NCBI GenBank assembly: GCA_013415865.1
Contig: CP058896.1
Coordinates: forward strand, 267,957-331,956
Direction: 5' to 3'
DNA from: Methanomassiliicoccales archaeon
Lineage (GTDB): Archaea > Thermoplasmatota > Thermoplasmata > Methanomassiliicoccales > UBA472
DNA: 64,000 nucleotides
How positions within the stretch are numbered: the stretch's first letter is position 1; every line of letters starts with the position of its first letter. This document shows positions 1,087-37,999 of this stretch, in pieces. Made by a program: the position numbers and the translations under genes. The notes under the pieces are model-generated. The model did no database searches. It saw nothing but the letters and a program-made list of their open reading frames with translations, and was not told where the DNA came from.

Positions 1087-1131
1087 CGTCATCATTATAA
1101 GTGGATAAATCATGGCATGGCCAAGTGATGA

Positions 1132-20200: not shown

Positions 20201-20793
20201 ATTTCATTTACGATAAAATCGTGAAAAGACGAAGAAGGGCCATGCACCAGATGCTTGAGCTTGCGAGGGTAGGGACCGTCGACATCGACAGGTTCAAGCT
20301 GGATATGCTCGCATTCTTAGAAGAATCGGAGTTCACGAAGCCGGTGGCCGGTCTTAGCTTGAGCGATGACCCGGATGCATGGCTCGAGATCCTGGAAAGA
20401 TTGGATGGCGTAGACTCGATGAGAAAGCTTCTGGGGGCGTGCAGGAGACAGTTAGAGGAAACGCCTGGACATCCCGGGTTGCTGATAATGGCCGGGTTCT
20501 GTGCCCTGAGCTATTCGAATGTGGCCAATGGCATGAAGGACCTTAAGAACGGATTATTTGCCTTGAAAGATTCTGTTTCGGACGATCATACCATAATGAA
20601 GACGGTCGAGAGGTTTTTCGAGATCTCGGAAAGGGTCCAGCCCTCGAAAAGAGAGTACATTCTCGAGGCGCTTCTGGAGCTTGGGATGCCGGATGTTGAT
20701 AGGTTCGTTTACAAGAGGTCCGGTCAATTTGGATACGCGCATCTGACCAGTCTTGTTAAGATCACTTCGGAGCTGGGGATCGGGAGAGAATAA
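17263..20793 (+). CDS. RecQ-family SF2 helicase with N-terminal PD-(D/E)xK-like (DUF2726/DUF559-like) module and unassigned C-terminal domain
   Basis: The helicase motifs are LLPTSGGKSLCYQL (I), VVDEAHCVSEWGHDFR (II), LTGTAS (III), HSFGMGIDKPDIRF and QQAGRAGRDG (VI). The N-terminal module is RVDFAIEV..KIVIEIDDSSH..KQRDKDLSNAKWKVYRL. No RQC/HRDC is recognisable. The start lies somewhere between TTG 17263 and ATG 17344, and a TATA-like AAATTATATC sits at 17211-17220. Confidence 0.8.
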   Translation: MRGENDIVGVNDNFQNCPWFFPCHTSSMVMSSVLKLIRCDDYSDDKLRKLSAHSSGFSIIGEREIENTEVDEERAFLAAVLSKIYQRGSPSPCSLETERRLLMRCQELSILKFEESNRSGSIVFDVTGSVEGLSSMLESCFFPELLVEGKDLDGLIELYLSICTGPEKEFFNKICSALPLKNLALMIVPQRTFRSMGIDGHVSERVDFAIEVPDLDRGGWLKIVIEIDDSSHNSTQFKDKQRDKDLSNAKWKVYRLRTNEKHKWDRAVENIAIDLITAVTPNIIEASVRLNKMEEKRRNAIRDMVLVPMAESKIAFLASRGLVRNVGQGIIVKSPRNLDLEPAVRSVMDTIRHIISLYNLNVHFKVKLGPEGTVDYYACPHPSMWSSVDPGERLCPIVVSPEVVERMIVADPVPLYYKGFEETVDRSLRFFLQNIFRKYDFRYGQLEIIRRALSLEHVVGLLPTSGGKSLCYQLSSILQPGISVVIDPLRSLIVDQVDNLNRMGMDRIGVIISRGRKNISEESALREKVMDNMMGGMYQFIFIAPERLQIQKFSKLIMEQIEIPITYCVVDEAHCVSEWGHDFRTSYLNVGRRFAERDIDRPNWRTHFIALTGTASRNVLVDIMRELMIEDEEAIVEPRSYDRPELHFSVVKVSKEERIGTIVRLVSRIVEKNFYESRKVPSGLIFTNFAGSEIGVIPLKNAIRSELSGVKVDCYAGKNPENRDNNETMKCDWEDQKINVQSDFKNGAVDILTCTHSFGMGIDKPDIRFTINAMLPRSIEEFYQQAGRAGRDGNDSDCYLVFSDDEPGLSDQILDDNRTPLDDISFRVNNLDWERRDDALHNTWFLSAAFQGVEEEKQQLRYLLRREIELVLKDESKLRVTSIPFLLSRKDPFNGKDETVLEKIIYRLQTIGAIRDYYKDYNGQKFTLHLIEFDSSSIYEQTRKHLGRYISEGEIEKRLGRASRSDPYEAVEHCGGVLIDFIYDKIVKRRRRAMHQMLELARVGTVDIDRFKLDMLAFLEESEFTKPVAGLSLSDDPDAWLEILERLDGVDSMRKLLGACRRQLEETPGHPGLLIMAGFCALSYSNVANGMKDLKNGLFALKDSVSDDHTIMKTVERFFEISERVQPSKREYILEALLELGMPDVDRFVYKRSGQFGYAHLTSLVKITSELGIGRE

Positions 20794-20794
20794 A

Positions 20795-21673
20795 ATGCCA
20801 TTGGAAACAAATGAGGAATCGCGGCGGGAGCTGATATTGAAGGCGGAAGAAGCGATACGACTGCTTGCGGAAGAATATGGAAAGGCATGTCAAGTATCAA
20901 ATTTCGCAAAAGAATCGCTGGACAGGATCACCGAGGCCAGAAACACCCTGACTGAAGCATTGTCATTGATAGAGAACGCGCAGATGAACCTTATTGAGGA
21001 CTCCAATAGGTCCAGGGAGGCTCTGGAATCTGCCAATAAGAGAAACGAGGAGGTCCGAGTAAGTCTTTTATCCTCTCTCGTCACGATCGAGAGGCTGGAC
21101 AAGGAGGTCCAGTTGCTTCAGAGGGACCTGTCCTCGGCGATCACGGAGCTCAAGAGAAGAGACAAAGAGATCTTGGACCTGATGATCGAGAATAACGAGA
21201 ATATAGTTTCTACCATCGAAAAATTGAGCGGGTCGGTCCAAGTAATTTTTGATGAGCTTAAGAAAAATTACGCACAATTGACCCTGTTGATAGAACAGGG
21301 GGATAGATCAATTCAGGATCTGATAAAAGACCGGGAACTTAAGTTGTCCTTTAAGATCGATGAGAGCGGATCGAAGATCGTAAATGACCTTGCTGCGTTG
21401 AAAGAGAAGCTTGAAAACTATTATGGGCAGATGGTCAATAATTTCAAAGATACAAATCAGGAAATTACGCTCAAGAACGAGCTGTTGGTATCTTTATTGA
21501 AGACGGAATACGAGAGCCTCATCGAAAGGTTCGAACGATTGGACAAAGAGAGCAAGGCCCGTCACGAGGAAGTGATGAACAAGCTTGAGCTTGCCCGATA
21601 TGCAGCAGTGTTCTCGGCCATATCTGTGGTAGGGATCGCTGGAGTGTTGATAATTTTGTTCATGGGAGGGTAA
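20795..21673 (+). CDS. Tail-anchored coiled-coil protein, partner of the helicase
   Basis: ATG 20795 is 1 nt after the helicase stop codon. The 292-aa protein is almost entirely charged heptad-like helix (EEAIRLLAEEYG..., LDKEVQLLQRDLSSAITELKRRDKEILDL...). It ends in a single TM, AAVFSAISVVGIAGVLIILFMGG. Confidence 0.6.
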   Translation: MPLETNEESRRELILKAEEAIRLLAEEYGKACQVSNFAKESLDRITEARNTLTEALSLIENAQMNLIEDSNRSREALESANKRNEEVRVSLLSSLVTIERLDKEVQLLQRDLSSAITELKRRDKEILDLMIENNENIVSTIEKLSGSVQVIFDELKKNYAQLTLLIEQGDRSIQDLIKDRELKLSFKIDESGSKIVNDLAALKEKLENYYGQMVNNFKDTNQEITLKNELLVSLLKTEYESLIERFERLDKESKARHEEVMNKLELARYAAVFSAISVVGIAGVLIILFMGG

Positions 21674-21798: not shown

Positions 21799-23310
21799 GT
21801 GCTCGGTCGTAAGTCCTTACTTGTGTTCCTCGGCAGCACGATATCCTCTGCCCTGGGGTTCATCTGCCTGTTCTTCATAACCAACTACGTCGGGGTGGAC
21901 AAGTACGGCACCGTCATCCTGATGACCTCCATACTTACAACGATAAACGTCATCGCGGACCTGGGCTTCTCGAGCGCGCACATCAAGAGGATATCCGAGG
22001 GTCAGGACGTCGACGATTGCGTCTCTACCTTCGTCCTGATAAAAATTAATTTGACCTGCCTGTTCGTCATAGCGTCGTTCCTTGCGCTGTTCATCTGGAT
22101 GGCGGCGCTTGGGAGGACCATCACCGACGTATCTAGGGATGTCTTCCTGGTGATGCTGCTGTTCGAGGTGTTCGTGAACCTATCGAACATCGCCGTGATA
22201 ACATTCCAGGGAAGGAGCGAGGTCGCGAAGGTCCAGTTCCTGCAGATACTGAACCCGTTGGTGCGGTTGCCTTTGGTGGTGCTCATCGCGTTCGCAGGGT
22301 CCAGCGCGGTTTTGCTAGCGGTGACCTACATGCTCGGCGCGATGGCGATGATGATAGCCTCATTTTTAATGATCAAGAGGGCGAGGTTCAGATGGAAGAG
22401 GCCCACCCTGTTCCGTTCGTACCTGACCTTCACCGTCCCGATCATCGTTGTGACGATAGTGTCGACGTTGTATCTCAACATCGACAAGATCATCATAGGA
22501 CTGGCGATAGACAACGTCCACGTTGGTTATTATTCGACCGTGCAGACGTTCCTTGGTGTCATCGCGGCCATCGGGACAGCGGTGTCCGTACTTACGTTCC
22601 CGAACTTCTCGTACCTCTTCGGCCAAGGTAGGGTCTCGGAGGTAAGAGAGAAGGCCTTGGCCGCCGAGAGGTATATATCGATGGTCTCGCTGCCGTTGGT
22701 CATTGTGCTGGTCATGTTCCCAAGTGAGGTACTGTCGACGCTGTTCGGCCCTGACCTTGCTGAAGGCGGGGATGCGCTGAGGTTCCTTGCCATTGGAACC
22801 TATATTGTGATGATAAATCAGCCGTACAGCTCGCAGCTGCTTGCGGCGAACAGGCCAGATATACTTGCGAAGAGCACGATAATAGGGTTTGCCATCGGGA
22901 CGGGCCTCTTCCTGCTTCTGATCCCGAAGGAGCTCTATGGAATAAGCACGATGGGGATGGGACTGGCCGGGGCAGGGATCGCAATAATAATGTCGAACCT
23001 GGGCCAGACGTTAATTGTAAGAAGTGCGGCGAAGGGGCTTTCAGGTTTAGCGCTCAACATGAGAATGTCACTTCAATTCTTGACGGCAATTTTCATTGGA
23101 ATATTATCACATGTTGTTTTCTTTTTAATGGATATCGAACCGTTCTTATCTATCCGATTATTTTTTGTAGTATTGGGCATCCCAGTTTTATTTTATACTT
23201 TATTGATTATATTTAACGAAGTTTCAAAAGAAGATATAAAATATTTTAAAGAATTAATAAATATTAAAAAAATGGTCCAATATATTATAAATGAAGCGCG
23301 AAATAAATAA
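21799..23310 (+). CDS. Wzx-like oligosaccharide/polysaccharide flippase (MOP/MATE-like superfamily)
   Basis: 503 aa with at least 12 hydrophobic helices. The N-terminal pattern SSALGFICLFFITNYVGVDKYGTV...DLGFSSAHIKRISEG is typical of polysaccharide biosynthesis (Wzx) proteins. The last ~90 codons switch to very AT-rich codon usage. Confidence 0.7.
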   Translation: MLGRKSLLVFLGSTISSALGFICLFFITNYVGVDKYGTVILMTSILTTINVIADLGFSSAHIKRISEGQDVDDCVSTFVLIKINLTCLFVIASFLALFIWMAALGRTITDVSRDVFLVMLLFEVFVNLSNIAVITFQGRSEVAKVQFLQILNPLVRLPLVVLIAFAGSSAVLLAVTYMLGAMAMMIASFLMIKRARFRWKRPTLFRSYLTFTVPIIVVTIVSTLYLNIDKIIIGLAIDNVHVGYYSTVQTFLGVIAAIGTAVSVLTFPNFSYLFGQGRVSEVREKALAAERYISMVSLPLVIVLVMFPSEVLSTLFGPDLAEGGDALRFLAIGTYIVMINQPYSSQLLAANRPDILAKSTIIGFAIGTGLFLLLIPKELYGISTMGMGLAGAGIAIIMSNLGQTLIVRSAAKGLSGLALNMRMSLQFLTAIFIGILSHVVFFLMDIEPFLSIRLFFVVLGIPVLFYTLLIIFNEVSKEDIKYFKELINIKKMVQYIINEARNK

Positions 23311-24051
23311 TAATTCTATTTAAATATTGGGGTAATCATAATTAAATCATTGTGATATGAAAAAAATATTCTTGACATTCAACTAGCCAGGCTAGTGATA
23401 TAAATAATAGTGTATCTAAGAAATTAAACTTCCTCCTTCATACTTTCTGTAATTTATTAGGGAGCAATCAGGCGTAATGGGTTTATACATTAAGATAATA
23501 TTAATATAGTAATATTCTAAATAGAGCGTTAAAATATCTCGAGGGCACATATTTTTTCGAAAGACGAATGATATAAAACCTCGATATACGCAATTTCAAA
23601 GCTTGAAGGTTCTGTAACAGCGGTTATTGTAGCTATTATACTAAAACTATTTTTATGATCGGTGTTAACCTTATAAATTATACTAAGTTCCAAACATCGT
23701 TCGACAATCCTTTGGATCAAAATTTATAATAAAGGGACGGCATGTGAAACGAGTGATGTTGAATTTATAAAATATGGCTCTAGCATGTCTTACCGAATGT
23801 GATGAAATATTAAAATTAAATAGAGATTATATAATGTTTCCTCCTCGAAAAAATTGAAGTGTCTGATGCTAAATAATATTCTTTATTTGTTTCTTCATTT
23901 TATCCTTTTTTAAAATGGCGTTTAAAAAAAATACATGAATAAATTATATAAAACAAAATTATCTGCGTATAATAGATTAAATAAATCTTTAATTTTATAG
24001 TCGACTCGATGTATAAGATTGGGTAATTTTAAATTGAAAATCGGTGAAAAT

Positions 24052-25446
24052 ATGCATGTAACTGCAATAATTTTAGCTGGTGGTGTCGGGAAAAGATTTG
24101 GGCTTGATGTACCAAAACAATTTGTAAAGTTAGCTGGTAAACCAATTATTTCGCATACCATTGACATATTTGAGAAAAATAGTATGATTAAAGAAATTAT
24201 AATTGTAGTTAATAAAGAATATTATAATTATTTAAATAATCTAGTAAAAAGTGGCCACGATTCAAATAAAATTAAAATAGTGGTAGGTGGTGATACTCGT
24301 CAAGAATCTTCATTCAATGGATTATTAGCTTGTTCAAAAAGTACTACTCACGTACTAATACATGATGCTGTTCGTCCATTTATAGACCAAGAAATTATTT
24401 ATGAATGCATTTTGAAACTTGAAGAATATGATGCAATTGATGTATGCATTGATTCGTCAGATACTCTAGTCGAAATTAATGAAAACAATGAAATCATCAA
24501 AATACCAAATAGAACGTCGATTAAAAGAGGACAAACCCCCCAAGCTTTTAAATTTGATGTGATTTTTAATGCACATAAAATATGCCAATCAAAGGGAATA
24601 CAGAATTCTACGGATGATTGTAACCTTGTATTACAATCAAATTTATGCAAAATACATGTAATCAATGGATCAAACCATAATATAAAGATTACTAATCCTA
24701 TTGACATCTCAATAGCAGAGAAAATTTTTCAAATTAGAGAGAAAAAAAGTCAATTGCTTAGTTATGATGATTTATTGCATAAATTGAATAATAAAGTGAT
24801 AGTAGTTGTGGGAGGAAGTTCTGGAATAGGTAAATCAATATGTGAGATTGGGAACAAACTTGGATCTGTTACCATCCCTTTGTCTAGATCTAATGGATTT
24901 GATGTTAGAAATCCAGAAACCATTAAATTTCATCTAAGTAAAATTTATAAAAAATATGAAAGAATCGATGCTGTAGTGATATGTGCGGCAATTCTCCATC
25001 GAAATAAATTTGAAAACTTTACCGATGATGAAATTAGAGAATTAATAGAAATCAACTTGACTGGGAATGCATATGTGGCAAAATATTCTATACCATATTT
25101 AAAAAAGACAAATGGCAAATTAGTTTTTTTTGCTTCGAGCTCATATTATAAGGGAAGGGGCGAATATTCGACCTATAGCGCAACAAAAGCTGGAATAGTA
25201 AATTTAATGCAATCGTTATCCGAGGAATTAGAGGACAAGGTTAGCGTTTTGGCCATTAATCCTCAAAGAACGAAGACACCATTAAGAACACGTAACTTTG
25301 GGGACGAGGATATAGATACATTGTTATCTGCGGATTTTGTAGCGTTATCCACATTAAATTCAATTGCTAAGGAAGGGAACAATGGTTGCATAATCGATAT
25401 AAGATTGTCGGACGAAAAAAAAGGAAGCCTTAAATATAATGAATAG
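24052..25446 (+). CDS. Bifunctional IspD/TarI-like cytidylyltransferase + short-chain dehydrogenase/reductase (CDP-ribitol-synthase-like architecture)
   Basis: Start at ATG 24052 (MHVTAIILAGGVGKRFGLDVPKQFVKLAGKPII = IspD/TarI nucleotide-binding loop). The C-terminal half has the SDR motifs VVGGSSGIGKS (TGxxxGxG-like) and YSATKAGIVNL (YxxxK). Confidence 0.75.
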   Translation: MHVTAIILAGGVGKRFGLDVPKQFVKLAGKPIISHTIDIFEKNSMIKEIIIVVNKEYYNYLNNLVKSGHDSNKIKIVVGGDTRQESSFNGLLACSKSTTHVLIHDAVRPFIDQEIIYECILKLEEYDAIDVCIDSSDTLVEINENNEIIKIPNRTSIKRGQTPQAFKFDVIFNAHKICQSKGIQNSTDDCNLVLQSNLCKIHVINGSNHNIKITNPIDISIAEKIFQIREKKSQLLSYDDLLHKLNNKVIVVVGGSSGIGKSICEIGNKLGSVTIPLSRSNGFDVRNPETIKFHLSKIYKKYERIDAVVICAAILHRNKFENFTDDEIRELIEINLTGNAYVAKYSIPYLKKTNGKLVFFASSSYYKGRGEYSTYSATKAGIVNLMQSLSEELEDKVSVLAINPQRTKTPLRTRNFGDEDIDTLLSADFVALSTLNSIAKEGNNGCIIDIRLSDEKKGSLKYNE

Positions 25447-26752
25447 ATTTAAATTTATTTTAAATAACTAGGTTCAGATATTTATTTTTGGATAATACAG
25501 TATTTTCCACTTCTTCAATTAAGATAGATATTTAATCGTAATGTGAATATTGTGATTTGGATGCACTTCATGGTTAAAGATACATCAGCTGCGATATGGG
25601 AATATATAGCTGCCCTATGGAGTTTATATTGATAAGCCTCTTTGGGGGATTTTCAGATATATGCGAAGAGATTGATTCTCGGCAAAGATGGCTATATAAA
25701 TATTAAATATATCGTCTCGTTCGCATTTAATATTGGCTCATAGCGCTCGCTCAATCGGTTCTATCTTCTCTCTGGAAATGGAGCTCGCAAAATTGACCAG
25801 ATGAAATCGAGGATGACGATGCAAGGAAAAAAGGGTGGTTTTTCGGTCGTTAATCACACATTGATTGAAAAGACCCAGAAGCAAATTGTCGGCAGGTTTG
25901 ATTTACAATCATTATGAGGATAGAAGCGTATGATTTTACAACTTTGTGGATTGTCCTAATTCGATAGGACCGGATACGGTTTCTTTTTCCTATTAGAACT
26001 ACCTAAAGTATAATTTGGCAAGGAAGATAAATTGATTTTCAAGACGAGGGTTGAACTAGCCGTCCAGTTAATTTAGAAGGTAAAATGCTGGAGCGATCGG
26101 ACTTCTTTCTATTCGGTGCCCAAATTGGAGGAATTGGGTGTAACGTTCAATCTTGTCGATGATGCCATGTTTCCTTTAAGAGGCTCAATCTAATCTTTTC
26201 GACGAGTTAGAAGGCCAAGTGATGTGGCTGGTGTAGGTGTTCCCACTATTGAATCTGAACGATTCCTGGAAGCTTGACGACCATTATTAGGAGGGTTACG
26301 ATCGTTTCTATGAGTTCTTCATGGAGCTGGGCAAATGTCTGGAGAAGGTTAAGGTCGATTTCGTGACTGTCGGCAAGCATTTTCGAGCGACTATCTCGGA
26401 CTAGTTGGAGATGTGCAGAGAATGGGATGGAAAAGTGTAATGTGAAGTGGAAGATTGCAGATGTTCTACCGAGACCACAAGCCGTACCCCGAATATGTGA
26501 ATATCAGGTCAGAAAGATTGGTATAAGAGTTATGAATCTCCTTTTAAGTTATTATAACCTACAATATCCTAAAAGGTATTGATCAGTGCCTCGAAATTCA
26601 AAAATCAAATTAAATGGTGTATACGCCATCTAGCTTTTTTGCCAAATACAGAAACATTGAGCGTTGCAGGGATTGATTTTCAACGATTAGATGGTTGAAA
26701 TTGTAAAAGTGTGGTATAAAATAAATAATAATAGAAGAATTTCGATTTATCC
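25447..26752. other. 1.3-kb ORF-free, stop-riddled segment of intermediate GC (probable decayed gene remnants)
   Basis: The track has no ORF of 60 aa or more in any frame across 1.3 kb. G+C is visibly higher than in the surrounding island genes. My translations give only short fragments (e.g. MELGKCLEKVKVDFVTVGKHFRATISD) separated by stop codons. Confidence 0.35.
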
Positions 26753-27793
26753 ATGGATGTACAAAATAATAAAACAATATGGATAGATTTAAAATGTCCT
26801 TCAGATGTTCATTTTTTTTATTCTGTTATGATTAATTTAAATAAGTTTCGGTATTTAATAACGACTCGAAAAAGAGCTGAAACACATCAATTGTCTATTA
26901 ATTATGGAATGAAAGGAATTCAAATAGGTTCTGATCATCAAAATCACTTATTGAAGGGCATGTATTATTTTGATAGGACCTTCAAACTTTCAATGATAAA
27001 AAAAGAATTTGATGCAATATTCTCATTTGAAGATGCGATTGGTCCAATATTAGGAAAATTTAAAAATAAGCCATCATATTTATTTTGCGATAATGATTTA
27101 AAATTGAATAAATCTTTTTCTAAATTTCAAAAAATAGAATCTAAGTTTAAGAATTTTGCAGATTATTTAATTATTCCTGAAATTTCTATTAAAGAATTTA
27201 TTAATAATTATTCAAATCCTAAAATAATAACATATAATGGCTATAAAGAAAATATTTATATCTCAGATTTTGAGCCGGATCCAAATTTTGATTTATTGGA
27301 TTACATTCCAAATTACGTATTAATACGTCCAGAAGCCATAGGGTCATTTTATGTTGCAGAAAAAAAGAGTATAGTTCCTCAGATTGTAAAATTATTAAAA
27401 AAAGAAAATTTTAACATAGTATATTTGCCTCGCGATCCTCAAGATTTTAGCTATGTTTCTAAAGATGAAGTTTTTATTCCTCCCAAAATTTACAAGGGTT
27501 TGGATTTGTGTTATCACAGTCAGGCAGTGTTAACTGGTTCCGGAACATTAGCTAGAGAGGCGGCAATTCTCGGTAAGACCTCAGTATCTTTTTTTCCTGG
27601 TTCAAAATTATTATCGGTAGATTCAGATTTAATAAGAAAGAAAAAAATGATTCACACTAGAGATCCTAAAGAAATCGTCAATTATATTTTAAATAGTAAA
27701 GAAGATAAAAATTACAATTATAAAACTAACTCAATAAAAGTGCGCGATGAGTTGATATCGAAATTAGGTGAAACATTAGATGAAGAGTTGTGA
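26753..27793 (+). CDS. DUF354-like GT-B-fold protein (putative glycosyltransferase/epimerase-like)
   Basis: 346 aa. The N-terminus KTIWIDLKCPSDVHFFYSVMINL matches the characteristic start of archaeal DUF354 proteins as I remember them. The C-terminal segment AVLTGSGTLAREAAILGKTSVSF is GT-B-like. Confidence 0.5.
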   Translation: MDVQNNKTIWIDLKCPSDVHFFYSVMINLNKFRYLITTRKRAETHQLSINYGMKGIQIGSDHQNHLLKGMYYFDRTFKLSMIKKEFDAIFSFEDAIGPILGKFKNKPSYLFCDNDLKLNKSFSKFQKIESKFKNFADYLIIPEISIKEFINNYSNPKIITYNGYKENIYISDFEPDPNFDLLDYIPNYVLIRPEAIGSFYVAEKKSIVPQIVKLLKKENFNIVYLPRDPQDFSYVSKDEVFIPPKIYKGLDLCYHSQAVLTGSGTLAREAAILGKTSVSFFPGSKLLSVDSDLIRKKKMIHTRDPKEIVNYILNSKEDKNYNYKTNSIKVRDELISKLGETLDEEL

Positions 27794-28880
27794 TTTAAAG
27801 TTATTATTTATAACTCCATATCCACCCGATGTGGGAGGAATATCTACTTATTCAAGTACATTAATAAGCCACTTAAATAATAAAAATTATTCTATAAGGA
27901 TATTAAGAATATATATAGTAAACAAAACCATGTTAAGTTATATTAATAAGATGAAATCGATAGTGTGTAATATCAATATATTATTAAAAGATGAGAGCAA
28001 TCTTGTTCATATTCAATCATCATCAGATTTTTCATTTATTGAAAATTCAATATATTTATTTATAATACGAATCTTAAATAATAAAAAAACAATATTTCAT
28101 CTCCATTCTCCAAATTTCACAACATTTTATCAAAGAAAAAATAAATTTATTAAAAAATATATAAAATTAATATTTAAAAAATCTGATAAAATTATTGTTT
28201 TATCAAATAAAGATCGCCAAGTGTTATTGAATATGAAAATTGAAGAACGAGATATATATTTAATAAGGAATTTCAATGGAGTTCAGAATGTATATAATGA
28301 TATAAAAACAGCAAAGATGTTAGAAATAAATGAAACTAACAATGTAATTTTATCAATAGGAAATTTAGAAGCTCGAAAAGGATTTGATATCCTAATTAAA
28401 TCCCTTTTTGAGTTACGCAAAATTCGAACAGATTTTGTATGCTATATTATTGGAAGCGGAAAAGAATATGATTCATTAAATAATTTAATAGATGAATTAA
28501 ATTTAAATGATAATGTTCGTTTGGTTGGGCGGATTAATTCAAAAACCCTAATTGATTATTATAAAAAATCTAAATTGGTTATTTTAACTAGTTATGACGA
28601 GGGATTGCCAATGGTGATGTTTGAAGCACTATCATTTGGCAAGCCTTTTATTGGAACAAATGTAGGTGGCATCCCAGAGATTATTAATTCAAATAATTAT
28701 GGTTATATTGTTGAACCTGGCAATATTAAAGAAATTACTTACTGTTTAAACAGTGCACTGAATAAAGAATGGGATGCTGATTTAATTTTGGAATATTCAA
28801 ATCAATTTTCCATTGATCGGATGTTGGAAAAAATAGAACAAATTTATTATGATTTATATATGGAAGGATTAAAACTATGA
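27780..28880 (+). CDS. Glycosyltransferase family 4 (group 1)
   Basis: 366 aa. The N-terminus KLLFITPYPPDVGGISTY and the C-terminal motif SYDEGLPMVMFEALSFGKPFIGTNVGGIPEII (E-x7-E) are both family signatures. It overlaps the upstream gene by 14 nt. Confidence 0.8.
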   Translation: MKSCDLKLLFITPYPPDVGGISTYSSTLISHLNNKNYSIRILRIYIVNKTMLSYINKMKSIVCNINILLKDESNLVHIQSSSDFSFIENSIYLFIIRILNNKKTIFHLHSPNFTTFYQRKNKFIKKYIKLIFKKSDKIIVLSNKDRQVLLNMKIEERDIYLIRNFNGVQNVYNDIKTAKMLEINETNNVILSIGNLEARKGFDILIKSLFELRKIRTDFVCYIIGSGKEYDSLNNLIDELNLNDNVRLVGRINSKTLIDYYKKSKLVILTSYDEGLPMVMFEALSFGKPFIGTNVGGIPEIINSNNYGYIVEPGNIKEITYCLNSALNKEWDADLILEYSNQFSIDRMLEKIEQIYYDLYMEGLKL

Positions 28881-30019
28881 TTTTAAATGAGAAAAAAGAG
28901 AAACAACAGAAAAAAATTCACATACTGTTTTTTGGTATGCCGCCTGGCAATAATTTAATTGACGGTTATTCTAAATGGTTTTCACCAATTATAAAAAATT
29001 TGAAAAAAAATGATAGATTAAATGTTTATTATATTAATTACAACAAGATATTGAACGAAAAATTTGAAATATTACGTTTTATATTAATTCCATATTTAAT
29101 ATATAAGTTACACAAATATAAAGATGAAATAGACATTGTTCACGTTTTACGACAAAATGCATGGTATTACAATATTTTTTATGCTCTAAAAATAAAAAAG
29201 AATATAACCCCATTGAAAATAATTACTGTTCATGATATTTATACAGCGAAAGGAAAGGTAAATTTTAAAATTATTAAAAACATTGCTCACGCAGATGCAA
29301 TATTTTGTCCATCCAACTATACAGCAAATGATATTCGTACAATTTTGAAAATTAACAAACCCGTATATGTTACTTATAATCCTTTAGATCCATCATTTTA
29401 TTGTATGGGTACTGATGATAAATTAAAAATGAGAAAAAATATTTTAAAAGAAAGATCGTCTCGCAAAGTCTTGTTATCTATAGCATCAGAAATGCCCAGG
29501 AAAAATTTTGAAAAATTGTTAGAAGTATTATTTCTATTTAATACTTCAATGAAGGAAAAGATACTATTGATTAAGGTAGGCCAGTTTACAAAATTAAGAT
29601 ATAAATATATTAATATTGCAAAAAAATTTGGAATAGAGAATGACATTTTATGGATAAATTATGCAAACGAAAAAGATTTGTTATATCTATATAATATTTC
29701 AGATATTTTTATTACATTAAGTGATGTCGAAGGTTTTTGTATGCCTTTGATTGAAGCCATGGCTTGTGGATTACCTATAATTGGGTCGAAATCTTCTGCC
29801 ATCCCAGAAATTGTAGGAAATGCAGGAATATTGGTAAATAATAATGATAATAAAGAAATTATTGAGGCGATAAACACATTGTTGTATAATATTGATAAAA
29901 GAAATGAGGTTATTGAAAATGGATTTAATAGAATAAGAGCATTCCACGAACAAGAAATAAGTAGAATATATTTTGAATCGTATTTAACAGCCTTGGAAAA
30001 GGGATTGAATGTTAAGTAA
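28877..30019 (+). CDS. Glycosyltransferase family 4 (group 1)
   Basis: 380 aa with the motif SDVEGFCMPLIEAMACGLPIIGSKSSAIPEIVGNAGILV. It has an ATGA start/stop overlap with the upstream gene. Confidence 0.75.
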   Translation: MILNEKKEKQQKKIHILFFGMPPGNNLIDGYSKWFSPIIKNLKKNDRLNVYYINYNKILNEKFEILRFILIPYLIYKLHKYKDEIDIVHVLRQNAWYYNIFYALKIKKNITPLKIITVHDIYTAKGKVNFKIIKNIAHADAIFCPSNYTANDIRTILKINKPVYVTYNPLDPSFYCMGTDDKLKMRKNILKERSSRKVLLSIASEMPRKNFEKLLEVLFLFNTSMKEKILLIKVGQFTKLRYKYINIAKKFGIENDILWINYANEKDLLYLYNISDIFITLSDVEGFCMPLIEAMACGLPIIGSKSSAIPEIVGNAGILVNNNDNKEIIEAINTLLYNIDKRNEVIENGFNRIRAFHEQEISRIYFESYLTALEKGLNVK

Positions 30020-31565
30020 ATTAAATAAAAAATTATCTATTATATCATTTTACACAATAATATCATCGATTTTATTGATTTCCATATATGATAAAGGTGT
30101 GACAGATCCATTTCTTCATGGACACATTTCAACCATCATTAAATTAATTAATAACCCAAATATTAAAATATTGAATTCCGATATGCAATTTTGGCCTCTG
30201 GCAGCTGTACAAATTATAATTTTTAATTTATTGTTTAACATATCTCCGATTACTATTCAATTTTTACCGTTAATTGGTTTATTATTTGTAATTACTTTTC
30301 CTTTATTATTGACTAGGTTTTTCCCTCTAGCAATTGGTATATTATTATCATTGATTGTACTATCATCATGGATATTACCCTACAATTATAGTGTATGGCC
30401 ACATGCATTTGGTTATTATTTATTTTTTATATTAATATATATAATTTATACATTTTACACTATAAAAAATTCTAGATATATAATTCTTATAATTATTTTA
30501 TTTATTGCTATTAATTTTTATTCTTATTCGACCTCTGTTTGGTCATTATCATTTTTAACTTTTATAATTTTATTTAATTACCTATACAATACATTTAAAT
30601 ATAAATCGAATTATAAATTTCAACCTTTTGCATTATTAATTGCTATGTTCGTCATATATTTTGGATTTAATAAAATCGTATATGAATCGTATTTTTCTAA
30701 TTTATATGATTCAGTTGGAGAGAGTAGCATATGGGAAAGATTAAATATATTTAATAATTTATTAATTTCTGACAATATTAAAACTATTTATTACACTAAC
30801 ACAAATTCTGAATTTATTTCGTATTTGGGATTAATTCGATTTCTTATCATTTTTATTCCAATAGTATATTTTTTAATCTATATCCTAAGAAATAAAGATG
30901 AATTAATTTCGAAACAATATTATGTATTTATCCCGTCCATGTTATTTATTTCTATAATTGATATCCTATCATATACGTCGGTATCCAGTAATGCGACTTC
31001 GTCGATTTTGTTCCGATATTATTCATTAATGGCCCCAATTGCAGTATTTTTTTCAATATCTGCATTGATGAAAAAAAGTCAAAGACGAGTCATAATTTTA
31101 ACAATCTATGCATCCCTAATTTTATTATTGTCAATTATAATATTATTTTCTAATCTTTACTCTACAAATATTGTCACTTCAAATGCGCATTTTAACAATG
31201 AAATTAATGGAATAGAGTGGACGATAGAGCATCGAGCTATTGGATCAATGATAATATCTGATCACCATACAGTAGGCCGAACGCTCATAGTTTCGAATGT
31301 TATCCATAGCGATTTGAAATTGTATCAAGACGTTTCATATTACAATGATTATTTATTTGAAAATTTTATTTCTAATAAGAAATCAATAATTGAAAATAAA
31401 TCGACACTAATCATAGTCAATAATGAAATAGAAATATTTCCAACGTCTGGCAATGATTGGATCAATTATCAGCCGCTCTTAAATTATAAACAAAATTATA
31501 CGATGAGTGAATATAATAATAAAGTATTTGATGATAGTAACATCAGGGTGTTTTTTAATAATTGA
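30009..31565 (+). CDS. Polytopic membrane protein, putative glycan polymerase or GT-C-type glycosyltransferase
   Basis: 518 aa with about 12 hydrophobic helices followed by a ~130-aa soluble C-terminal domain. Its position inside the glycosyltransferase operon suggests this role. I recognise no diagnostic catalytic motif. Confidence 0.5.
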   Translation: MLSKLNKKLSIISFYTIISSILLISIYDKGVTDPFLHGHISTIIKLINNPNIKILNSDMQFWPLAAVQIIIFNLLFNISPITIQFLPLIGLLFVITFPLLLTRFFPLAIGILLSLIVLSSWILPYNYSVWPHAFGYYLFFILIYIIYTFYTIKNSRYIILIIILFIAINFYSYSTSVWSLSFLTFIILFNYLYNTFKYKSNYKFQPFALLIAMFVIYFGFNKIVYESYFSNLYDSVGESSIWERLNIFNNLLISDNIKTIYYTNTNSEFISYLGLIRFLIIFIPIVYFLIYILRNKDELISKQYYVFIPSMLFISIIDILSYTSVSSNATSSILFRYYSLMAPIAVFFSISALMKKSQRRVIILTIYASLILLLSIIILFSNLYSTNIVTSNAHFNNEINGIEWTIEHRAIGSMIISDHHTVGRTLIVSNVIHSDLKLYQDVSYYNDYLFENFISNKKSIIENKSTLIIVNNEIEIFPTSGNDWINYQPLLNYKQNYTMSEYNNKVFDDSNIRVFFNN

Positions 31566-31577
31566 AGGGAGTTTAAA

Positions 31578-32618
31578 ATGAAAAAAATATTATTAATTGG
31601 TAACGCTAATTCTAATAGTAGTAGCAGAATATTTCAAAATTTAATCATAGACCTCATCCAACAAAATCGAAACATCACTGTCATCAGTGGTAATAAACCG
31701 CATAAAAATAACGTTGAATGGATTTCAGTATCAGAATTATCAGACATTTTTATAATAAATTTTATATTTATCCAATTAAAAATTATGAAATATATCTTAA
31801 AGAGTTATCATAATTACAACGACATTGTAATATTGATAGAACATTTTGTATTTATTAATATTTTATGTAGAATATTAAATATTAAAAATATTATTTTTGT
31901 GGATGGGAAATCAGTAAATACATTTTCATCAACATTTTCAAAGATTAGTTTTCATTATGCCAGTAAATTGATTGTTCCAGCAACGAGTTTAATTAAAGAC
32001 TGGAAAATTGAAAAATTCAAACCAAAAATTTTTCTATCGAAATATTATATTGATATAAATAAATTTTATATAAAGAAAGATTATAAAAATCGAAATAAAA
32101 ATATAGGTTTTATTGGTCGTTTTACTGAAGAAAAAAGGTTATCGTTATTTTTAGAATTTTGTTCATTAGTTATTAATATAGATCCAAAAATAAAGATTTA
32201 CATTGCTGGAGATGGACGATTAAAAAAAGATTTGATATACAACATTCAAAAATACAATATGGAGAATAAAGTAAGATTATGTGGTTGGATCGAAGATAAT
32301 AAACTAGCAGATTTTTATAACGAGCTTAGATTATTAATTATCACTTCAAAGGTAGAAGGAGGGCCACTAGTTGCATTAGAATCGATGTCTTGTGGAACAC
32401 CGATTTTATCTACTAAGGTTGGAATCATTGAAGATGTAATTGTGGATGGCATAAATGGATATATTTTTAATGAAGAAAATATAATGAATCAGGCGATTAA
32501 AGTTGTTAAGTTATTAAATTCCGAAGAATTAAATACTGTTTCTGTGAACGCAAGAAATACAATTGTAAATAATTATAGTTATGAATCTGGTATTCAAGAT
32601 ATGAATAAAATTCTATAA
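31578..32618 (+). CDS. Glycosyltransferase family 4 (group 1)
   Basis: 346 aa with the motif SKVEGGPLVALESMSCGTPILSTKVGIIEDVIVDGINGYIF. Confidence 0.8.
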   Translation: MKKILLIGNANSNSSSRIFQNLIIDLIQQNRNITVISGNKPHKNNVEWISVSELSDIFIINFIFIQLKIMKYILKSYHNYNDIVILIEHFVFINILCRILNIKNIIFVDGKSVNTFSSTFSKISFHYASKLIVPATSLIKDWKIEKFKPKIFLSKYYIDINKFYIKKDYKNRNKNIGFIGRFTEEKRLSLFLEFCSLVINIDPKIKIYIAGDGRLKKDLIYNIQKYNMENKVRLCGWIEDNKLADFYNELRLLIITSKVEGGPLVALESMSCGTPILSTKVGIIEDVIVDGINGYIFNEENIMNQAIKVVKLLNSEELNTVSVNARNTIVNNYSYESGIQDMNKIL

Positions 32619-33431
32619 CTGAAATTGAATGATATCATGACCCGAAATTCTTTCATTAATCGAAGGAATTTTCATGTAATCACCATACAACTGGGTTAGT
32701 ATCTCATTATAATGTTCTGGTATGGGGAATAATAAATTTTCAAATTTAATATAAATGGACTTATGAAACCATTCAATGGGATATGAAATGTGATCAATAT
32801 CATCAAATGGCCATGCACTGAAAATTACCAGATCCTCCTTCTTTTTTCTTGATAGTATAGAAGAATACCCTTTTTGGAATAATATTTTTGGGAGAGGGAC
32901 AAGACAACTTATAAAATTTGCAAACCCCTCATATTTAGAAGAATTTTTTACCCATATATATTTAATTAAACCAATATATCCAAAAATTGAAACTAATTTC
33001 CAATAAATATATCGTTCATATTTGTTAATCGGTGCATAATCTAAAGGAAAAATATCAATAAATATTCCTTTTGGAATGTCAAGTTTAGAGGTTGATCGTT
33101 CTACAAATTTTGTATTTAAATTCATCATTTTTGAATAATAAAATGGAAAATTTTTATGAGATTTAGAGGAGATTATTGAAATGTTAGGTGGCAACTCTGA
33201 CGCTGGTAATTTAAGTAATTTTTCATAATCATCCCTCATCATCACAAGATCCAAATCATCATCCCAAGGAATGAACCCATTATGCCTCACGGCTCCCAAC
33301 AACGTTCCACAAAATAAAAAATATTTTAACCCATGTTTCTTACAAATTTTATCAAATTCAATCAAAATTTCTAGTTCCTTTTGATGAATTTTATTAAGCA
33401 AATCTTCATTGATGACAAAAATTGTATCCAC
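32613..33431 (-). CDS. LicD-family phosphotransferase (phosphocholine / ribitol-phosphate transferase family)
   Basis: 272 aa with a GTG start. It carries the canonical LicD motif FCGTLLGAVRHNGFIPWDDDLDLVMMRDDYEKL. It is convergent with the last GT4 gene, overlapping it by 6 nt. Confidence 0.8.
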   Translation of the reverse strand: MDTIFVINEDLLNKIHQKELEILIEFDKICKKHGLKYFLFCGTLLGAVRHNGFIPWDDDLDLVMMRDDYEKLLKLPASELPPNISIISSKSHKNFPFYYSKMMNLNTKFVERSTSKLDIPKGIFIDIFPLDYAPINKYERYIYWKLVSIFGYIGLIKYIWVKNSSKYEGFANFISCLVPLPKILFQKGYSSILSRKKKEDLVIFSAWPFDDIDHISYPIEWFHKSIYIKFENLLFPIPEHYNEILTQLYGDYMKIPSINERISGHDIIQFQL

Positions 33432-33853
33432 CTCATATGATTATTATTAACTCCTTCTCATTAATGTTATCGAATTGATATTGATTGTAATATTTATAAC
33501 GCAAGCTTTAAATTTAATTCTTAGGCGATTAAGATGTGAATAATATACATATTTAAGGATATAATAAAACCTTTCGGTCTTCTGAATCAATATTAAAGTG
33601 TTTCGCTTTGTTATTGGTTCGCTTGGGATTAAATATAAAGGTTTTTATCTAATCATATGAAATTATTTCCATATCTATTTGAAGGAGTCAATGGAGCTGA
33701 CTATTCTCCCGTATCGCAGCTGATATGTCTTAAACCCCGAAATGCATCCCAAATAACAAATATTCACATTTCGATTAAATATCTATCTAGATTGAAAATG
33801 TGCAAAAATAGTATAAATTATAAATTATATTTATTTCTTTTTCTTTTCGTCCT

Positions 33854-33880
33854 TCTTTCCGCCCTTTCCGCACTTTCCGC
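33854..33880. repeat. 3 x 9-nt tandem repeat (N-CTTTCCGC) at right edge of the AT-rich island
   Basis: TCTTTCCGC CCTTTCCGC ACTTTCCGC occupies 33854-33880, preceded by the degenerate copy TTCTTTTCGTCC. It forms a GC-rich patch in AT-rich non-coding DNA. Confidence 0.5.
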
Positions 33881-34267
33881 ATGACATTGAATTCTCGCCT
33901 CCTCTTGGGACTTTACCCAATGTGGATAATGCATTTGTTGGCCAAGTATTTCAATCTATTCTTTTTAATCGAAAATTAAGAATAATATTATTTTTCAAAA
34001 ATTAACACTCATTGGCCTTGAGATCAATCAATCTCGAACATGATGACAGGGCCAATTGCCTGACATACAACAACAAAGGCCGACGGTCAACAACATTTAT
34101 TTAATTAGAACGTTATTTAATTGCTCGGGATGCACGGGACCCGTTCAGGCATGGACGGGCCTATCAGGCTGTTAGAATGCCATCGTCCCTCGTCCGATGG
34201 CACGATGCATACGAACAGCCCTACATGATGACGACATGCTCGCGTTCCCTCGTCCGGGAGCTGAGAG

Positions 34268-36055
34268 ATGGAGATAGACACCAGCAAGCTGTTGCTCGAG
34301 TTCGGAGCGATCATGCTCATCGCCTTCATAGGCGCAGCCCTGGCCTTCAGGGCGAAGCAGTCGGCGGTCCTAGGCTACATCGTCGTCGGCATGCTCATAG
34401 GGCCTTCGATCTACCTGGAGATCGGCCCTTTCACCTACACGGGCCTCGTCAGCGAGGTCGGCTTCATCGAGGCGCTGTCGCAGATAGGCATCATCCTCCT
34501 CATCTTCTTCGTAGGTTTAGAGTTCAGCATCGACAAGATAAAGCGCGTCAAGGGGCCGGCGGTCATCCTTTCCTTCATAGATGTCGGCATCAACCTCTTC
34601 GTGGGCTTCCTTCTTGCCTTCGGCCTCGGATGGCCCCTCATCGATTCGATATTCCTCGCCGCCGTCATGGCGATGTCCTGCTCCGCCGTCGCGATGAAGA
34701 CGCTCATCGAGCTCGACAGGATGTCGAGGCCTGAGACCGAGTACATCATGGGCATGGTCATCCTCGAGGAGTTCATCTCGATGGTCTTCCTCACCGTGGT
34801 CGGCGGCCTCGTCATCAAGATAGACCCCGACTTCACCGTGGGCATGATGCTCCTGGGCATGGCCGGGTTCTTCATCTTCTTCGCTATCCTTGCCCTTGTT
34901 ATCATCCCGCGCTCCATCAGCTACATCTCAAGGATGAAGAGCGACGAGCTCTTCGTGCTCTTCATGCTCGCCATCGTCCTCCTCTCCGCGTGGTTCGCCG
35001 AGTTCTGCGGCGTCCCGAAGCTGATAGGCGCCTTCTTCATCGGGATGGTCTTCGCGGAGACGAAGATCATCGACCGCATGGAGAAGAAGATCTCCCCGAT
35101 AAGGGACGCCTTCGTCGCGATATTCTTCGTCTCCTTCGGCATGCTCATCGACCCGGGCATGTTCATACCCGTGCTGCCGGTCATCGCCCTGGCGATCGTC
35201 CTCATCCTCACGGCGGAGATGATCATCATGCCTATGGTCTCGTACCTGATCGGTTTCAACAGGCGCGCCTCGGTGCAGATAGGCGCCTCCTTCAGCGCCA
35301 GGGGCGGCGAGTCGGTCATGTACGCATCGATCGGCTCTCAATCAGCAGGGGCGGTCAAGGGCGCCGAGCTGAACCCCATAGCAGGAGGCATCACCTTCGT
35401 CATGTCCGCGCTGTGCCCCTATTTCATAAGGAAGAGCTATGACATCGCGGACTACTTCGCCCTGAAGGTCCCCGCCTCGATAAAGTATGGTGCGGCTGTC
35501 TTCTCGAGGACGCTCGGCAAGCTCGTGTTCCCGGCGACCTTCCGTCCGTTCAAGATTACAAGGACGTTCATCTTCACCCTAATGGTCATCGTGGCATCGC
35601 TCATCGCCACGGCATCGACCTCAGGTGCGCTTCACCTCGCCTTCTTCGCATTGTCGATCGCGATGTGCGTCTACGTCTGGTACATCATGGTCAAGAATAT
35701 GCGGGGCATAGTGAGGCAGATAGACTATTCCAATCTAGGAGCCGTCCTAGGAAGCGACGAGAAGCTCACGAAGTACATCGCGACCTCGATATCGCTAGGC
35801 CTGGTCATGTGCTCCACAGTCTGCTTCATGTTCCCCATCCTCTGGCAGTCGGTCATCATCATCTCCCTCGCCTACGTGGCGTGGTTCGCCTATCTCATGA
35901 AGCTCGTCTACGACCGCACCTGCTCCAGCTCGAGGTACATCAAGATAGCCAAGGACCAGTTCACCGGCAGGTTCAGCTCCTTCGACAGCACGGAGAAGAA
36001 GAACGGCATGATGTCCTTGGACCTTGAGATAGAGTACAGGCAGAGGGAGAAGTGA
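34268..36055 (+). CDS. Cation:proton antiporter, CPA2 (Kef/NapA-like) with extra C-terminal membrane domain
   Basis: 595 aa. The N-terminus LLLEFGAIMLIAFIGAALAFRAKQSAVLGYIVVGMLIGPS is the typical Na_H_exchanger start. About 12 TM helices are followed by 4-5 more helices. Confidence 0.8.
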   Translation: MEIDTSKLLLEFGAIMLIAFIGAALAFRAKQSAVLGYIVVGMLIGPSIYLEIGPFTYTGLVSEVGFIEALSQIGIILLIFFVGLEFSIDKIKRVKGPAVILSFIDVGINLFVGFLLAFGLGWPLIDSIFLAAVMAMSCSAVAMKTLIELDRMSRPETEYIMGMVILEEFISMVFLTVVGGLVIKIDPDFTVGMMLLGMAGFFIFFAILALVIIPRSISYISRMKSDELFVLFMLAIVLLSAWFAEFCGVPKLIGAFFIGMVFAETKIIDRMEKKISPIRDAFVAIFFVSFGMLIDPGMFIPVLPVIALAIVLILTAEMIIMPMVSYLIGFNRRASVQIGASFSARGGESVMYASIGSQSAGAVKGAELNPIAGGITFVMSALCPYFIRKSYDIADYFALKVPASIKYGAAVFSRTLGKLVFPATFRPFKITRTFIFTLMVIVASLIATASTSGALHLAFFALSIAMCVYVWYIMVKNMRGIVRQIDYSNLGAVLGSDEKLTKYIATSISLGLVMCSTVCFMFPILWQSVIIISLAYVAWFAYLMKLVYDRTCSSSRYIKIAKDQFTGRFSSFDSTEKKNGMMSLDLEIEYRQREK

Positions 36056-37956: not shown

Positions 37957-37984
37957 TAAAATCACCAATTTTATGATTGATTTT

Positions 37985-37999
37985 TGTGATATTATCACA
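37985..37999. promoter_or_regulatory. Perfect 7-1-7 palindrome TGTGATAtTATCACA upstream of the AbiL-like operon
   Basis: It lies 29-43 nt upstream of ATG 37956, within AT-rich promoter-like DNA, and has operator-like geometry. Confidence 0.3.

Follow-up and report, generated by a model that had tools for sequence, protein, structure and literature searches.

A predicted surface-glycan cassette of foreign composition, bordered by a mosaic flippase gene, in a deep-aquifer Methanomassiliicoccales archaeon

The stretch of DNA analyzed here, 64,000 nt of contig CP058896.1 (positions 267,957 to 331,956; assembly GCA_013415865.1) and referred to below as the window, comes from a Methanomassiliicoccales archaeon and contains a sharply bounded, AT-rich island of genes with predicted functions in surface glycan synthesis. 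The source organism is metagenome-assembled genome (MAG) Ch47, recovered from a 2.8-km-deep aquifer tapped by a borehole in Western Siberia, by a study that sequenced both Illumina and MinION reads; it was the sole Methanomassiliicoccales MAG of that metagenome, and shares 47–59% average amino acid identity with known species (PMC7509429). The genes and intervals of the island and its immediate borders are as follows (positions are those of the window).

21799–23310, + strand: MOP/Wzx-type oligosaccharide flippase, 503 aa (Pfam Polysacc_synt, E 5.4e-23)
23088–34123: the low-G+C island as a whole, ~11.0 kb, 0.25–0.30 G+C
23311–24051: AT-rich spacer without a credible open reading frame (ORF), with no homology to any ORF or protein of the comparison loci
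24052–25446, + strand: bifunctional cytidylyltransferase/short-chain dehydrogenase (IspD-SDR), 464 aa (ATG at 24052, the ORF opening with a TTG at 24019; IspD, E 1.1e-52; adh_short, E 3.3e-28)
26753–27793, + strand: DUF354 protein, predicted glycosyltransferase, 346 aa (Pfam DUF354, E 1.3e-28)
27780–28880, + strand: GT4 glycosyltransferase, 366 aa (Glycos_transf_1, E 6e-39)
28877–30019, + strand: GT4 glycosyltransferase, 380 aa (Glycos_transf_1, E 1.6e-31)
30009–31565, + strand: polytopic membrane protein, 518 aa, GT-C fold by AlphaFold2 and Foldseek, no Pfam or NCBIfam model
31578–32618, + strand: GT4 glycosyltransferase, 346 aa (Glycos_transf_1, E 1.8e-32)
32613–33431, – strand: LicD-family phosphotransferase, 272 aa (Pfam LicD, PF04991, E 1.1e-44; 153.6 bits, cutoff 22.6)
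34268–36055, + strand: cation:proton antiporter of the right host flank (Na_H_Exchanger, E 1.9e-53; G+C at third codon positions, GC3, 0.87)

Measured per kilobase between 23 and 34 kb, G+C is 0.22–0.36, the adjacent kilobases having 0.54 and 0.56–0.58, and many 200-nt intervals inside the island fall to 0.15–0.22. Maximum-likelihood change points place the left edge at 23,088 (support 23,046–23,092), where G+C drops from 0.54 to 0.25, and the right edge at 34,123 (support 34,120–34,127), where it rises from 0.30 to 0.58. The GC3 values of the seven island genes are 0.17–0.24, compared to 0.69–0.87 for host core genes, and the dinucleotide signature distance (delta* x1000) between island and host is 185–221, while host segments differ among themselves by 30–81 and from two other Methanomassiliicoccales loci by 41–82. 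A first-pass annotation, made from the sequence alone, had put the edges at 23,040 and 33.9–34.1 kb, close to the computed change points, and the abrupt shift that it described is confirmed by per-kb G+C, GC3 and dinucleotide signature alike. Its description of a ~60% GC genome fits the host core (~55–60%), but the window is heterogeneous, with a third class of genes at 44–50% G+C (GC3 0.51–0.60) that takes in those just left of the flippase and the AbiL pair to the right.

Six of the seven island genes are on the + strand and one, licD (32613–33431), is on the – strand, convergent with a glycosyltransferase operon (26753–32618) in the order DUF354, GT4, GT4, 518-aa membrane protein, GT4. Adjacent genes overlap by 14 nt (27780/27793), by an ATGA (28877) and by 11 nt (30009/30019), exactly as had been annotated, but the accompanying picture of seven packed genes holds for only five of them, and ~2.9 kb of the island (26%) is without a credible ORF (23311–24051, 25447–26752 and 33432–34267). 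ARAGORN detected no tRNA or tmRNA genes in the whole 64 kb, no Rfam families were found in the window (a PYLIS_4 match at 23991–24067 was weak, E 0.77, and was dismissed), and scans of the island genes and of a set of neighboring genes gave no integrase or transposase domains, bearing out the earlier remark that none of these is recognizable at the edges. Nor does any att-like direct repeat join the two edges, the single AT-rich 11-mer that they have in common being at chance level. The island does not conform to the classical tRNA/integrase type of integrative island.

The left junction falls within the flippase ORF (~23,046–23,092), and the gene is a compositional mosaic: its first 1,251 nt (21799–23049) have a GC3 of 0.75, and its last 261 nt (23050–23310) a GC3 of 0.26. 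Despite its low G+C, the tail codes for a C-terminus homologous to that of flippases, and the entire 503-aa protein, including residues 418–503, aligns with the flippase of another Methanomassiliicoccales MAG (GCA_054813355.1, locus L010) at 41% identity. A hybrid yet intact flippase is the remnant expected when two homologous genes for flippases recombine. Because the mosaic gene keeps a homologous low-G+C tail, it argues that the cassette was replaced through homologous recombination and not inserted by an integrase, and on the left side there is a recombination signal in the bordering gene without site-specific recombination machinery. The low-G+C transfer proposed in the first-pass annotation is upheld as regards foreign composition, but this is not an anonymous insertion, since the junction lies inside a homologous flippase gene at a pre-existing glycan locus.

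Locus L010 also suggests that the site is older than its present content. It holds genes for a flippase (41%), LicD, IspD-SDR, ACS (74%) and EamA (53%) within ~12 kb, the same loose neighborhood as that of the window. Judged by these similarities, the glycan locus looks pre-existing and old, with the island as cassette content replaced there. The antiporter of the right flank is 56–74% identical to Methanomassiliicoccales homologues. A scan of genome and metagenome contigs for the antiporter gave nine loci at 42–74% identity (eight archaeal, 56–74%, and one from an Acidobacteriaceae MAG, 42%; seven from genomes and one on a 4.7-kb metagenome contig). The comparison with sister genomes that had been proposed earlier favors a transfer insofar as there is no low-G+C DNA upstream of the antiporter in any of the nine (3.6–10 kb available), but it is a weak test, as none is syntenic with the window, including the closest (68–74% identical).

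In the first complete gene of the island, the adh_short domain (residues 294–426) is part of the same polypeptide as the cytidylyltransferase. The protein scores 170.3 against the NCBIfam model NF001183 (D-ribitol-5-phosphate cytidylyltransferase; cutoff 166), its PDB matches include the TarI structures 4jis, 6xhp and 2vsh and human ISPD (4cvh), and its homologues carry the JGI label 'ribitol-5-phosphate 2-dehydrogenase / D-ribitol-5-phosphate cytidylyltransferase'. From its domains and family matches, it is predicted to be a CDP-ribitol synthase of Bcs1 architecture. The fusion protein is unlikely to act as an IspD, as archaea rely on the mevalonate pathway for their isoprenoids.

The best IspD-SDR matches are 52–57% identical and belong to a clade of 17 sequences, of which only two have a named source, both Methanomassiliicoccales. 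In a neighbor-joining (NJ) tree, the window protein is the long-branch sister of this clade (terminal branch 0.33, median 0.15). The clade has a high-GC amino acid composition, opposite to the strong AT bias of the window protein, and so the grouping is not a case of compositional attraction. Other homologues are more distant, namely those of Promethearchaeota and Nitrososphaerales (47%), Aneurinibacillus (44%) and Epulopiscium (42%). The initial view of the IspD-SDR/LicD module as bacterial has to be abandoned: its best matches, insofar as their source is named, are from the host's own order, and bacterial homologues reach only 42–44%. In five loci with the closest IspD-SDR homologues (counting two short contigs that duplicate the L011 locus), a licD gene lies immediately upstream; four of these loci have a G+C of 0.54–0.59, and the fifth, L014, 0.41–0.49.

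The LicD protein of the island is 35–38% identical to the LicD proteins encoded beside IspD-SDR in the Methanomassiliicoccales loci, and its PDB match is the fukutin-related protein FKRP (6kaj, 2.8e-5), the sole solved relative and a ribitol-phosphate transferase. On this similarity, LicD would transfer ribitol phosphate from CDP-ribitol. For the DUF354 protein, 375 homologues were found, mostly archaeal. The best are 45–49% identical, several of them on archaeal contigs of 27–32% G+C with DUF1616 genes; proteins of Thermoplasmata, Methanosarcina, Methanocella and Methanomassiliicoccus are 42–45% identical, bacterial homologues are more distant, and no relatives were found in IMG/VR viral contigs. 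The first impression that this protein looks archaeal was well founded.

The 518-aa membrane protein has no match in Pfam or NCBIfam. A word-indexed search returned one distant relative, and an exhaustive search of 1.84 billion representatives returned 123 full-length relatives (~520 aa), of which 54 were aligned; none of the 54 convincingly matches any Pfam family. A single-sequence AlphaFold model was unusable (mean predicted local distance difference test, pLDDT, 44.7), whereas AlphaFold2 with the 54-sequence alignment gave a pLDDT of 90.7 and a predicted template modeling score (pTM) of 0.91. The top 20 Foldseek matches in the PDB are all GT-C enzymes (probability 0.96–1.0, TM 0.40–0.55), the best being STT3A (6s7o_A, E 6.6e-6, TM 0.55), and others include DPY19, yeast STT3, PglB, AftA, ArnT, ALG9, Pmt4 and EmbB. 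One aspartate, D33, is conserved in 87% of the 54 members; the model places it between its first two helices, which makes it a candidate for the acidic residue that GT-C enzymes conserve in their first extracytoplasmic loop. Another, D418, is invariant and follows the last transmembrane helix, within an 'SDxxTxG' motif. The soluble C-terminal domain is small (~110 aa) and, if it resembles that of GT-C enzymes, would lie outside the cell.

Two more familiar identities were considered for this protein and rejected. A Wzy polymerase or WaaL ligase is not supported, as none of the 54 members has a Wzy_C, O-antigen ligase or EpsG-type match and the structural neighbors are GT-C enzymes. An oligosaccharyltransferase of the AglB/STT3/PglB type is not supported either, since the large C-terminal domain is lacking and the family has neither a WWDYG/WWDxG motif nor an STT3 Pfam match. 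The model thus presents the protein as a predicted GT-C-fold transferase that is neither AglB nor Wzy polymerase, and makes it a candidate extracytoplasmic transferase using the flipped, lipid-linked glycan. The locus of one GT-C relative was examined, and is a glycan cluster with DUF1616; in the loci examined, DUF1616 sits in archaeal-type glycan clusters. Among the proteins that GenBank lists for the MAG the 518-aa one is missing; QLH74247–QLH74251 leaves three slots there for four genes, and the gene may have been left uncalled or flagged as a pseudogene, although its ORF is intact in the window.

The DNA between the island genes holds traces of earlier rearrangement, at the following positions.

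25484–25625, + strand: arm A of an inverted repeat; the IspD-SDR stop codon is 38 nt upstream
25626–26752: ORF-less segment of 0.40–0.43 G+C (peak 0.48) within DNA of 0.25 G+C
33480–33654, – strand: probable 3'-terminal relic of a second IspD-SDR gene of divergent sequence, with one stop codon and one frameshift, just upstream of licD, between it and arm B
33683–33825, – strand: arm B of the inverted repeat, upstream of licD

The two arms (~125–140 nt, ~8.1 kb apart) share 99/125 identities (79%, E 4e-24) with indels, and contain 49- and 51-nt stretches that match at 88% and 80%. Their conserved cores are AGATAGATATTTAATCGWAATGTGAATATT and ATCAGCTGCGATAYGGGA; these 30-nt and 18-nt cores are confined to the two arms, against chance expectations of 0.00 and 0.14 occurrences. 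The arms bracket an 8.1-kb glycan block of two convergent transcription units, and may be duplicated promoter/leader regions or recombination scars; a consensus fold of the two sequences is weak (-8.1 kcal/mol, two compensatory pairs). Bracketing inverted repeats could suggest a composite transposon or an invertible segment, but this was rejected, as the arms are now only 79% identical and no transposase or invertase gene is present. Close to the right edge, on its inner side, positions 33838–33885 hold an imperfect, CT-rich repeat (TTTCC/CTTTC units) that matches 59 nt of intergenic L010 sequence (4883–4941) at 80% identity, probably a coincidence of low complexity.

The relic reads 'NPKRTNNKAKHFNIDSEDRKVLLYP*', then, after the frameshift, 'CVINITIN'. 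When a profile of 119 IspD-SDR proteins was run against 2,169 six-frame segments of the window, the interval 33556–33648(–) matched at E 0.015, and the next non-self match had an E of 2; by blastx the relic gives E 1e-3, with 26 homologues matching the same residues. From these matches it is probably the last 30–60 codons of a second IspD-SDR gene. A further candidate for an IspD-SDR 3' end upstream of arm B ('ALSTL...DEKK') was set aside as chance, being a 13/14-nt match with an E of only 0.12. In the ORF-less segment, none of the listed ORFs with a start codon exceeds 51 aa, and the longest stop-free stretch is 85 aa. Methanomassiliicoccales use pyrrolysine, and no ORF appears in the segment when any one stop codon, amber included, is read as sense. 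It has no Pfam match in its stop-free segments, no plasmid or phage match, no Rfam match (E<=1), no homology to the comparison loci by blastx, tblastx or blastn, and no RNA-structure signal (z = +1.7 and +1.0), and it is probably decayed DNA. The inverted repeat, the probable remnant of a second IspD-SDR gene and the 1.3 kb of probably decayed sequence mark the cassette itself as a rearranged mosaic produced by several events.

A donor was sought by searching the IspD-SDR, DUF354 and 518-aa proteins against 5.8 billion proteins. Apart from the query sequences themselves, nothing exceeded 57%, 49% and 23% identity, respectively, and none of the contigs carrying the best matches (high-GC Methanomassiliicoccales loci, archaeal contigs of 27–32% G+C, and a virus) shares the cassette. 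A recent transfer from a low-GC donor, as first proposed, agrees with the foreign composition, but no donor lineage can be named and the word recent is drawn solely from the lack of amelioration. As far as tested, on the homologues of IspD-SDR and DUF354 and on the genes around one GT-C relative, the gene pool is archaeal.

On balance, we think it probable that the island is a surface-glycan cassette of foreign composition, installed at a pre-existing variable glycan locus by homologous recombination and not by an integrase or transposase. Several points weigh against this. On the right, the junction falls into the intergenic DNA ahead of the antiporter, and the second crossover is thus not placeable on a homologous gene; with neither a donor nor a conspecific genome found, replacement and recency are not directly demonstrated; the lack of the island in relatives counts for little because their antiporter loci are not syntenic with the window; the IspD-SDR grouping has a bootstrap of only 56/100 in the NJ tree; the island has no initiating phosphoglycosyltransferase; and each biochemical step assigned to it is read from family membership or fold. 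That the DNA itself is real is hardly in question. A chimera created in assembly or binning, with DNA of a low-GC organism joined into the MAG, might be suspected from the metagenomic source and the extreme change in composition, and yet we give it almost no credence. All but one of the proteins checked occur in GenBank (QLH74245–QLH74252) on a 1.82-Mb contig labeled Methanomassiliicoccales archaeon, and also on an independent 258-kb Logan contig of SRR6186653, and within the contigs of both assemblies host sequence flanks the island on both sides. The agreement of the two assemblies, together with the intact, in-frame and homologous flippase ORF across the left junction, argues against a chimera, and MinION reads exist for the sample.

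A different history is conceivable, in which the island is not a recent import but a long-resident low-GC glycan locus circulating within Methanomassiliicoccales populations, and we consider this unlikely. An AT-rich composition may be a property of the class of locus, as has been argued for enterobacterial O-antigen clusters; the closest IspD-SDR relatives are in the host's own order; the LicD/IspD-SDR pair of L014 (0.41–0.49 G+C within DNA of 0.56–0.59) hints at a locus-specific downward trend; the window has other glycan genes at 0.47 G+C; and decayed relics and repeat arms of only 79% identity imply a long history. Set against these, a GC3 of ~0.2 in a genome of ~0.75 amounts to essentially no amelioration, L010, L011 and L015 carry the module at native GC, the signature distance of ~200 is far beyond the host range, and an abrupt switch inside one gene resembles a discrete event. 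Delivery by a low-GC archaeal tailed virus with a LicD/IspD-SDR/GT module, which is compatible with the cassette replacement that we favor, seems less likely again. The nearest outgroup to the clade with the window IspD-SDR in the NJ tree consists of two proteins (P0019 and P0021), and P0021 (52% identical) is encoded on uncultivated tailed-virus contigs of 33.6% G+C (L021 and L022; GCA_020047475.1 JAHZTK010001742.1 and a contig of ERR7570000) that carry terminase, portal and family-B DNA polymerase genes as well as licD followed by IspD-SDR, GT4, GT2, methyltransferase and epimerase genes; the polymerase has its best phage matches in haloarchaeal tailed viruses, and 15 IMG/VR contigs encode more distant IspD-SDR relatives. 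The island, however, has no viral gene or relic, the viral IspD-SDR copies are no closer than chromosomal ones, and DUF354 has no IMG/VR relative. Transfer of a capsule or teichoic-acid locus from a low-GC bacterium is very improbable: IspD-SDR, LicD and GT4 are classic members of such loci and have homologues in Aneurinibacillus (44%) and Epulopiscium (42%), but archaeal IspD-SDR proteins are closer (52–57% in the top clade, 47% in Promethearchaeota/Nitrososphaerales), DUF354 is archaeal and so are the surroundings of the GT-C family, the low-G+C flippase tail matches the Methanomassiliicoccales flippase type, and Pfam scans of all seven island genes gave neither a TagF/TarL-type polymerase nor a TagGH-like ABC transporter.

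Under cassette replacement by homologous recombination, the anatomy of the locus suggests that the left crossover would have taken place inside the resident flippase gene, leaving an intact hybrid with a host-like 5' part and a cassette-like 3' part, and that the source would be an unsampled gene pool of ~25% G+C, part of it related to the order's own LicD/IspD-SDR module. In the proposed pathway, IspD-SDR would reduce ribulose-5-phosphate to ribitol-5-phosphate and convert this to CDP-ribitol, while on the cytoplasmic side DUF354 and the three GT4 enzymes would assemble a lipid-linked oligosaccharide. LicD would add ribitol phosphate from CDP-ribitol, the MOP flippase would move the product across the membrane, and the GT-C-fold enzyme would transfer it to an acceptor outside the cell. 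As the island encodes no initiating phosphoglycosyltransferase, initiation would be supplied from elsewhere in the genome. The surface-glycan function first ascribed to the cassette is supported by this set of predicted functions (flippase, CDP-ribitol synthase, DUF354, three GT4, GT-C-fold protein and LicD). The likely benefit would be a changed surface type, for example with altered virus adsorption, and the suggestion of virus-receptor variation is plausible; the companion suggestion of host-immune evasion does not apply, because the organism is a free-living methanogen of a deep aquifer (PMC7509429).

Several neighboring features of the window may be noted. To the right, 250 nt past the antiporter, is an AbiLi/AbiLii system (RloB + AAA_21; 36311–37998, – strand; 0.47–0.48 G+C; PADLOC 1.7e-98 and 4.6e-25). 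To the left, the region 17263–21673 borders directly on the flippase and encodes a 1,176-aa RecQ-family DpdF-like helicase (PADLOC DpdF, 2.8e-76), then a protein of 306 aa that matches no family and has a hydrophobic segment at its C-terminus; GC3 is ~0.58 in the two genes, and the region may be a defense-type insertion of intermediate composition. The DpdF-like helicase on one side and AbiLi/AbiLii on the other, both of intermediate GC, fit the replacement picture. About 20 kb from the island, at 55–4041, is a second glycan-related segment of atypical composition (0.47 G+C, GC3 0.56), where two more glycosyltransferases are encoded, one of 343 aa and the other a double GT1-type protein of 969 aa. 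A 1,382-aa Peptidase_C1 protein with a faint Big_13 match is encoded at 11774–15922, and Peptidase_C11 proteins of 1,561 and 1,745 aa are found in L011 (21164 to locus end) and L015 (18642 to locus end), with faint Ig-like (Big) matches in both and CARDB in that of L011. Such large peptidase-domain proteins near glycan loci may be targets of surface glycosylation.

Glycan cassettes exchanged by homologous recombination are familiar from the O-antigen clusters of enterobacteria. Such cassettes, for O-antigen, capsule or S-layer glycans, are also the substance of the replacement flexible genomic islands of aquatic bacteria (Lopez-Perez et al. 2014, PMC4033161) and of GI1 of Haloquadratum walsbyi (PMC4535781). 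The island resembles these in being a glycan cassette at a fixed surface-glycan locus, with a junction in the bordering gene and neither integrase nor tRNA, and in its atypical composition, Wzx-type flippase, several glycosyltransferases and presumed role in surface variation under virus pressure. It differs in the size of the compositional gap, ~30 points of G+C and ~55 points of GC3, which is much larger than in the Hqr. walsbyi islands (47–53% reported, PMC4535781), and in having a GT-C-fold terminal enzyme rather than a Wzy polymerase or WaaL ligase. Replacement flexible islands are defined by different but functionally equivalent cassettes at one site in conspecific strains, and for this MAG no conspecific genome was found. 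The main and alternative N-glycosylation (agl) clusters of Haloferax are likewise archaeal surface-glycan genes, strain-variable and subject to within-gene recombination and lateral exchange (PMC5867893), but these are centered on the oligosaccharyltransferase AglB, whereas the island has neither AglB nor WWDYG and carries a CDP-ribitol/LicD module instead. Islands of deviant G+C have been noted earlier in Methanomassiliicoccales genomes (PMC4153887). We regard the island as an archaeal equivalent, exceptionally extreme in its features, of the O-antigen and capsule loci that vary among bacteria.

The gene content has parallels of its own in the known CDP-ribitol modules, which comprise Bcs1 of Haemophilus influenzae, TarI/TarJ with LicD-family transferases in Gram-positive bacteria, and ISPD with FKTN/FKRP in mammals. 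As in Bcs1, the cytidylyltransferase of the island is fused to an SDR reductase, and the LicD-family gene of the same island matches FKRP. Pfam and NCBIfam scans of the island genes gave no TarK/TarL/TagF-type polymerase, TagGH exporter or LCP ligase, and without a TagF/TarL polymerase and TagGH exporter this is not a wall-teichoic-acid pathway; judging from the genes present, ribitol phosphate would instead form part of a glycan that depends on the flippase. The 518-aa protein shares its predicted fold with GT-C enzymes (STT3/AglB/PglB, DPY19, ArnT, AftA/Emb, ALG9 and PMT), may have in common with them a conserved Asp after the first transmembrane helix, and differs from STT3/AglB/PglB in having no WWDYG and a much shorter soluble domain. 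Archaea, CDP-ribitol and LicD were not found together in the literature searched, that on ribitol phosphate, archaea and glycans being only partly covered by the search. A wider proposal would be that this is an archaeal ribitol-phosphate surface glycan whose last step is performed by an unclassified, WWDYG-less, STT3-like GT-C family, and that low-GC modules of this kind may be shuttled from one archaeon to another by tailed viruses with LicD/IspD-SDR/glycosyltransferase sets; taken as a whole, we hold it to be speculative and doubtful.

The kind of island is known, and understanding of such islands is unchanged by this one, low-GC glycan loci exchanged by recombination being textbook knowledge in bacteria and described in haloarchaea. 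What is new is the size of the compositional gap, the scar inside a gene, the predicted ribitol-phosphate chemistry in an archaeon, and a GT-C family without a model. To our knowledge, nothing is known of the surface glycans of deep-subsurface Methanomassiliicoccales, and the locus offers what is probably a clean archaeal case in which a surface-glycan cassette was exchanged and a gene has kept the scar of the recombination. It also leads to the prediction of ribitol-phosphate chemistry in an archaeon, and for a family of membrane proteins that had no model it provides a predicted fold and a likely function.

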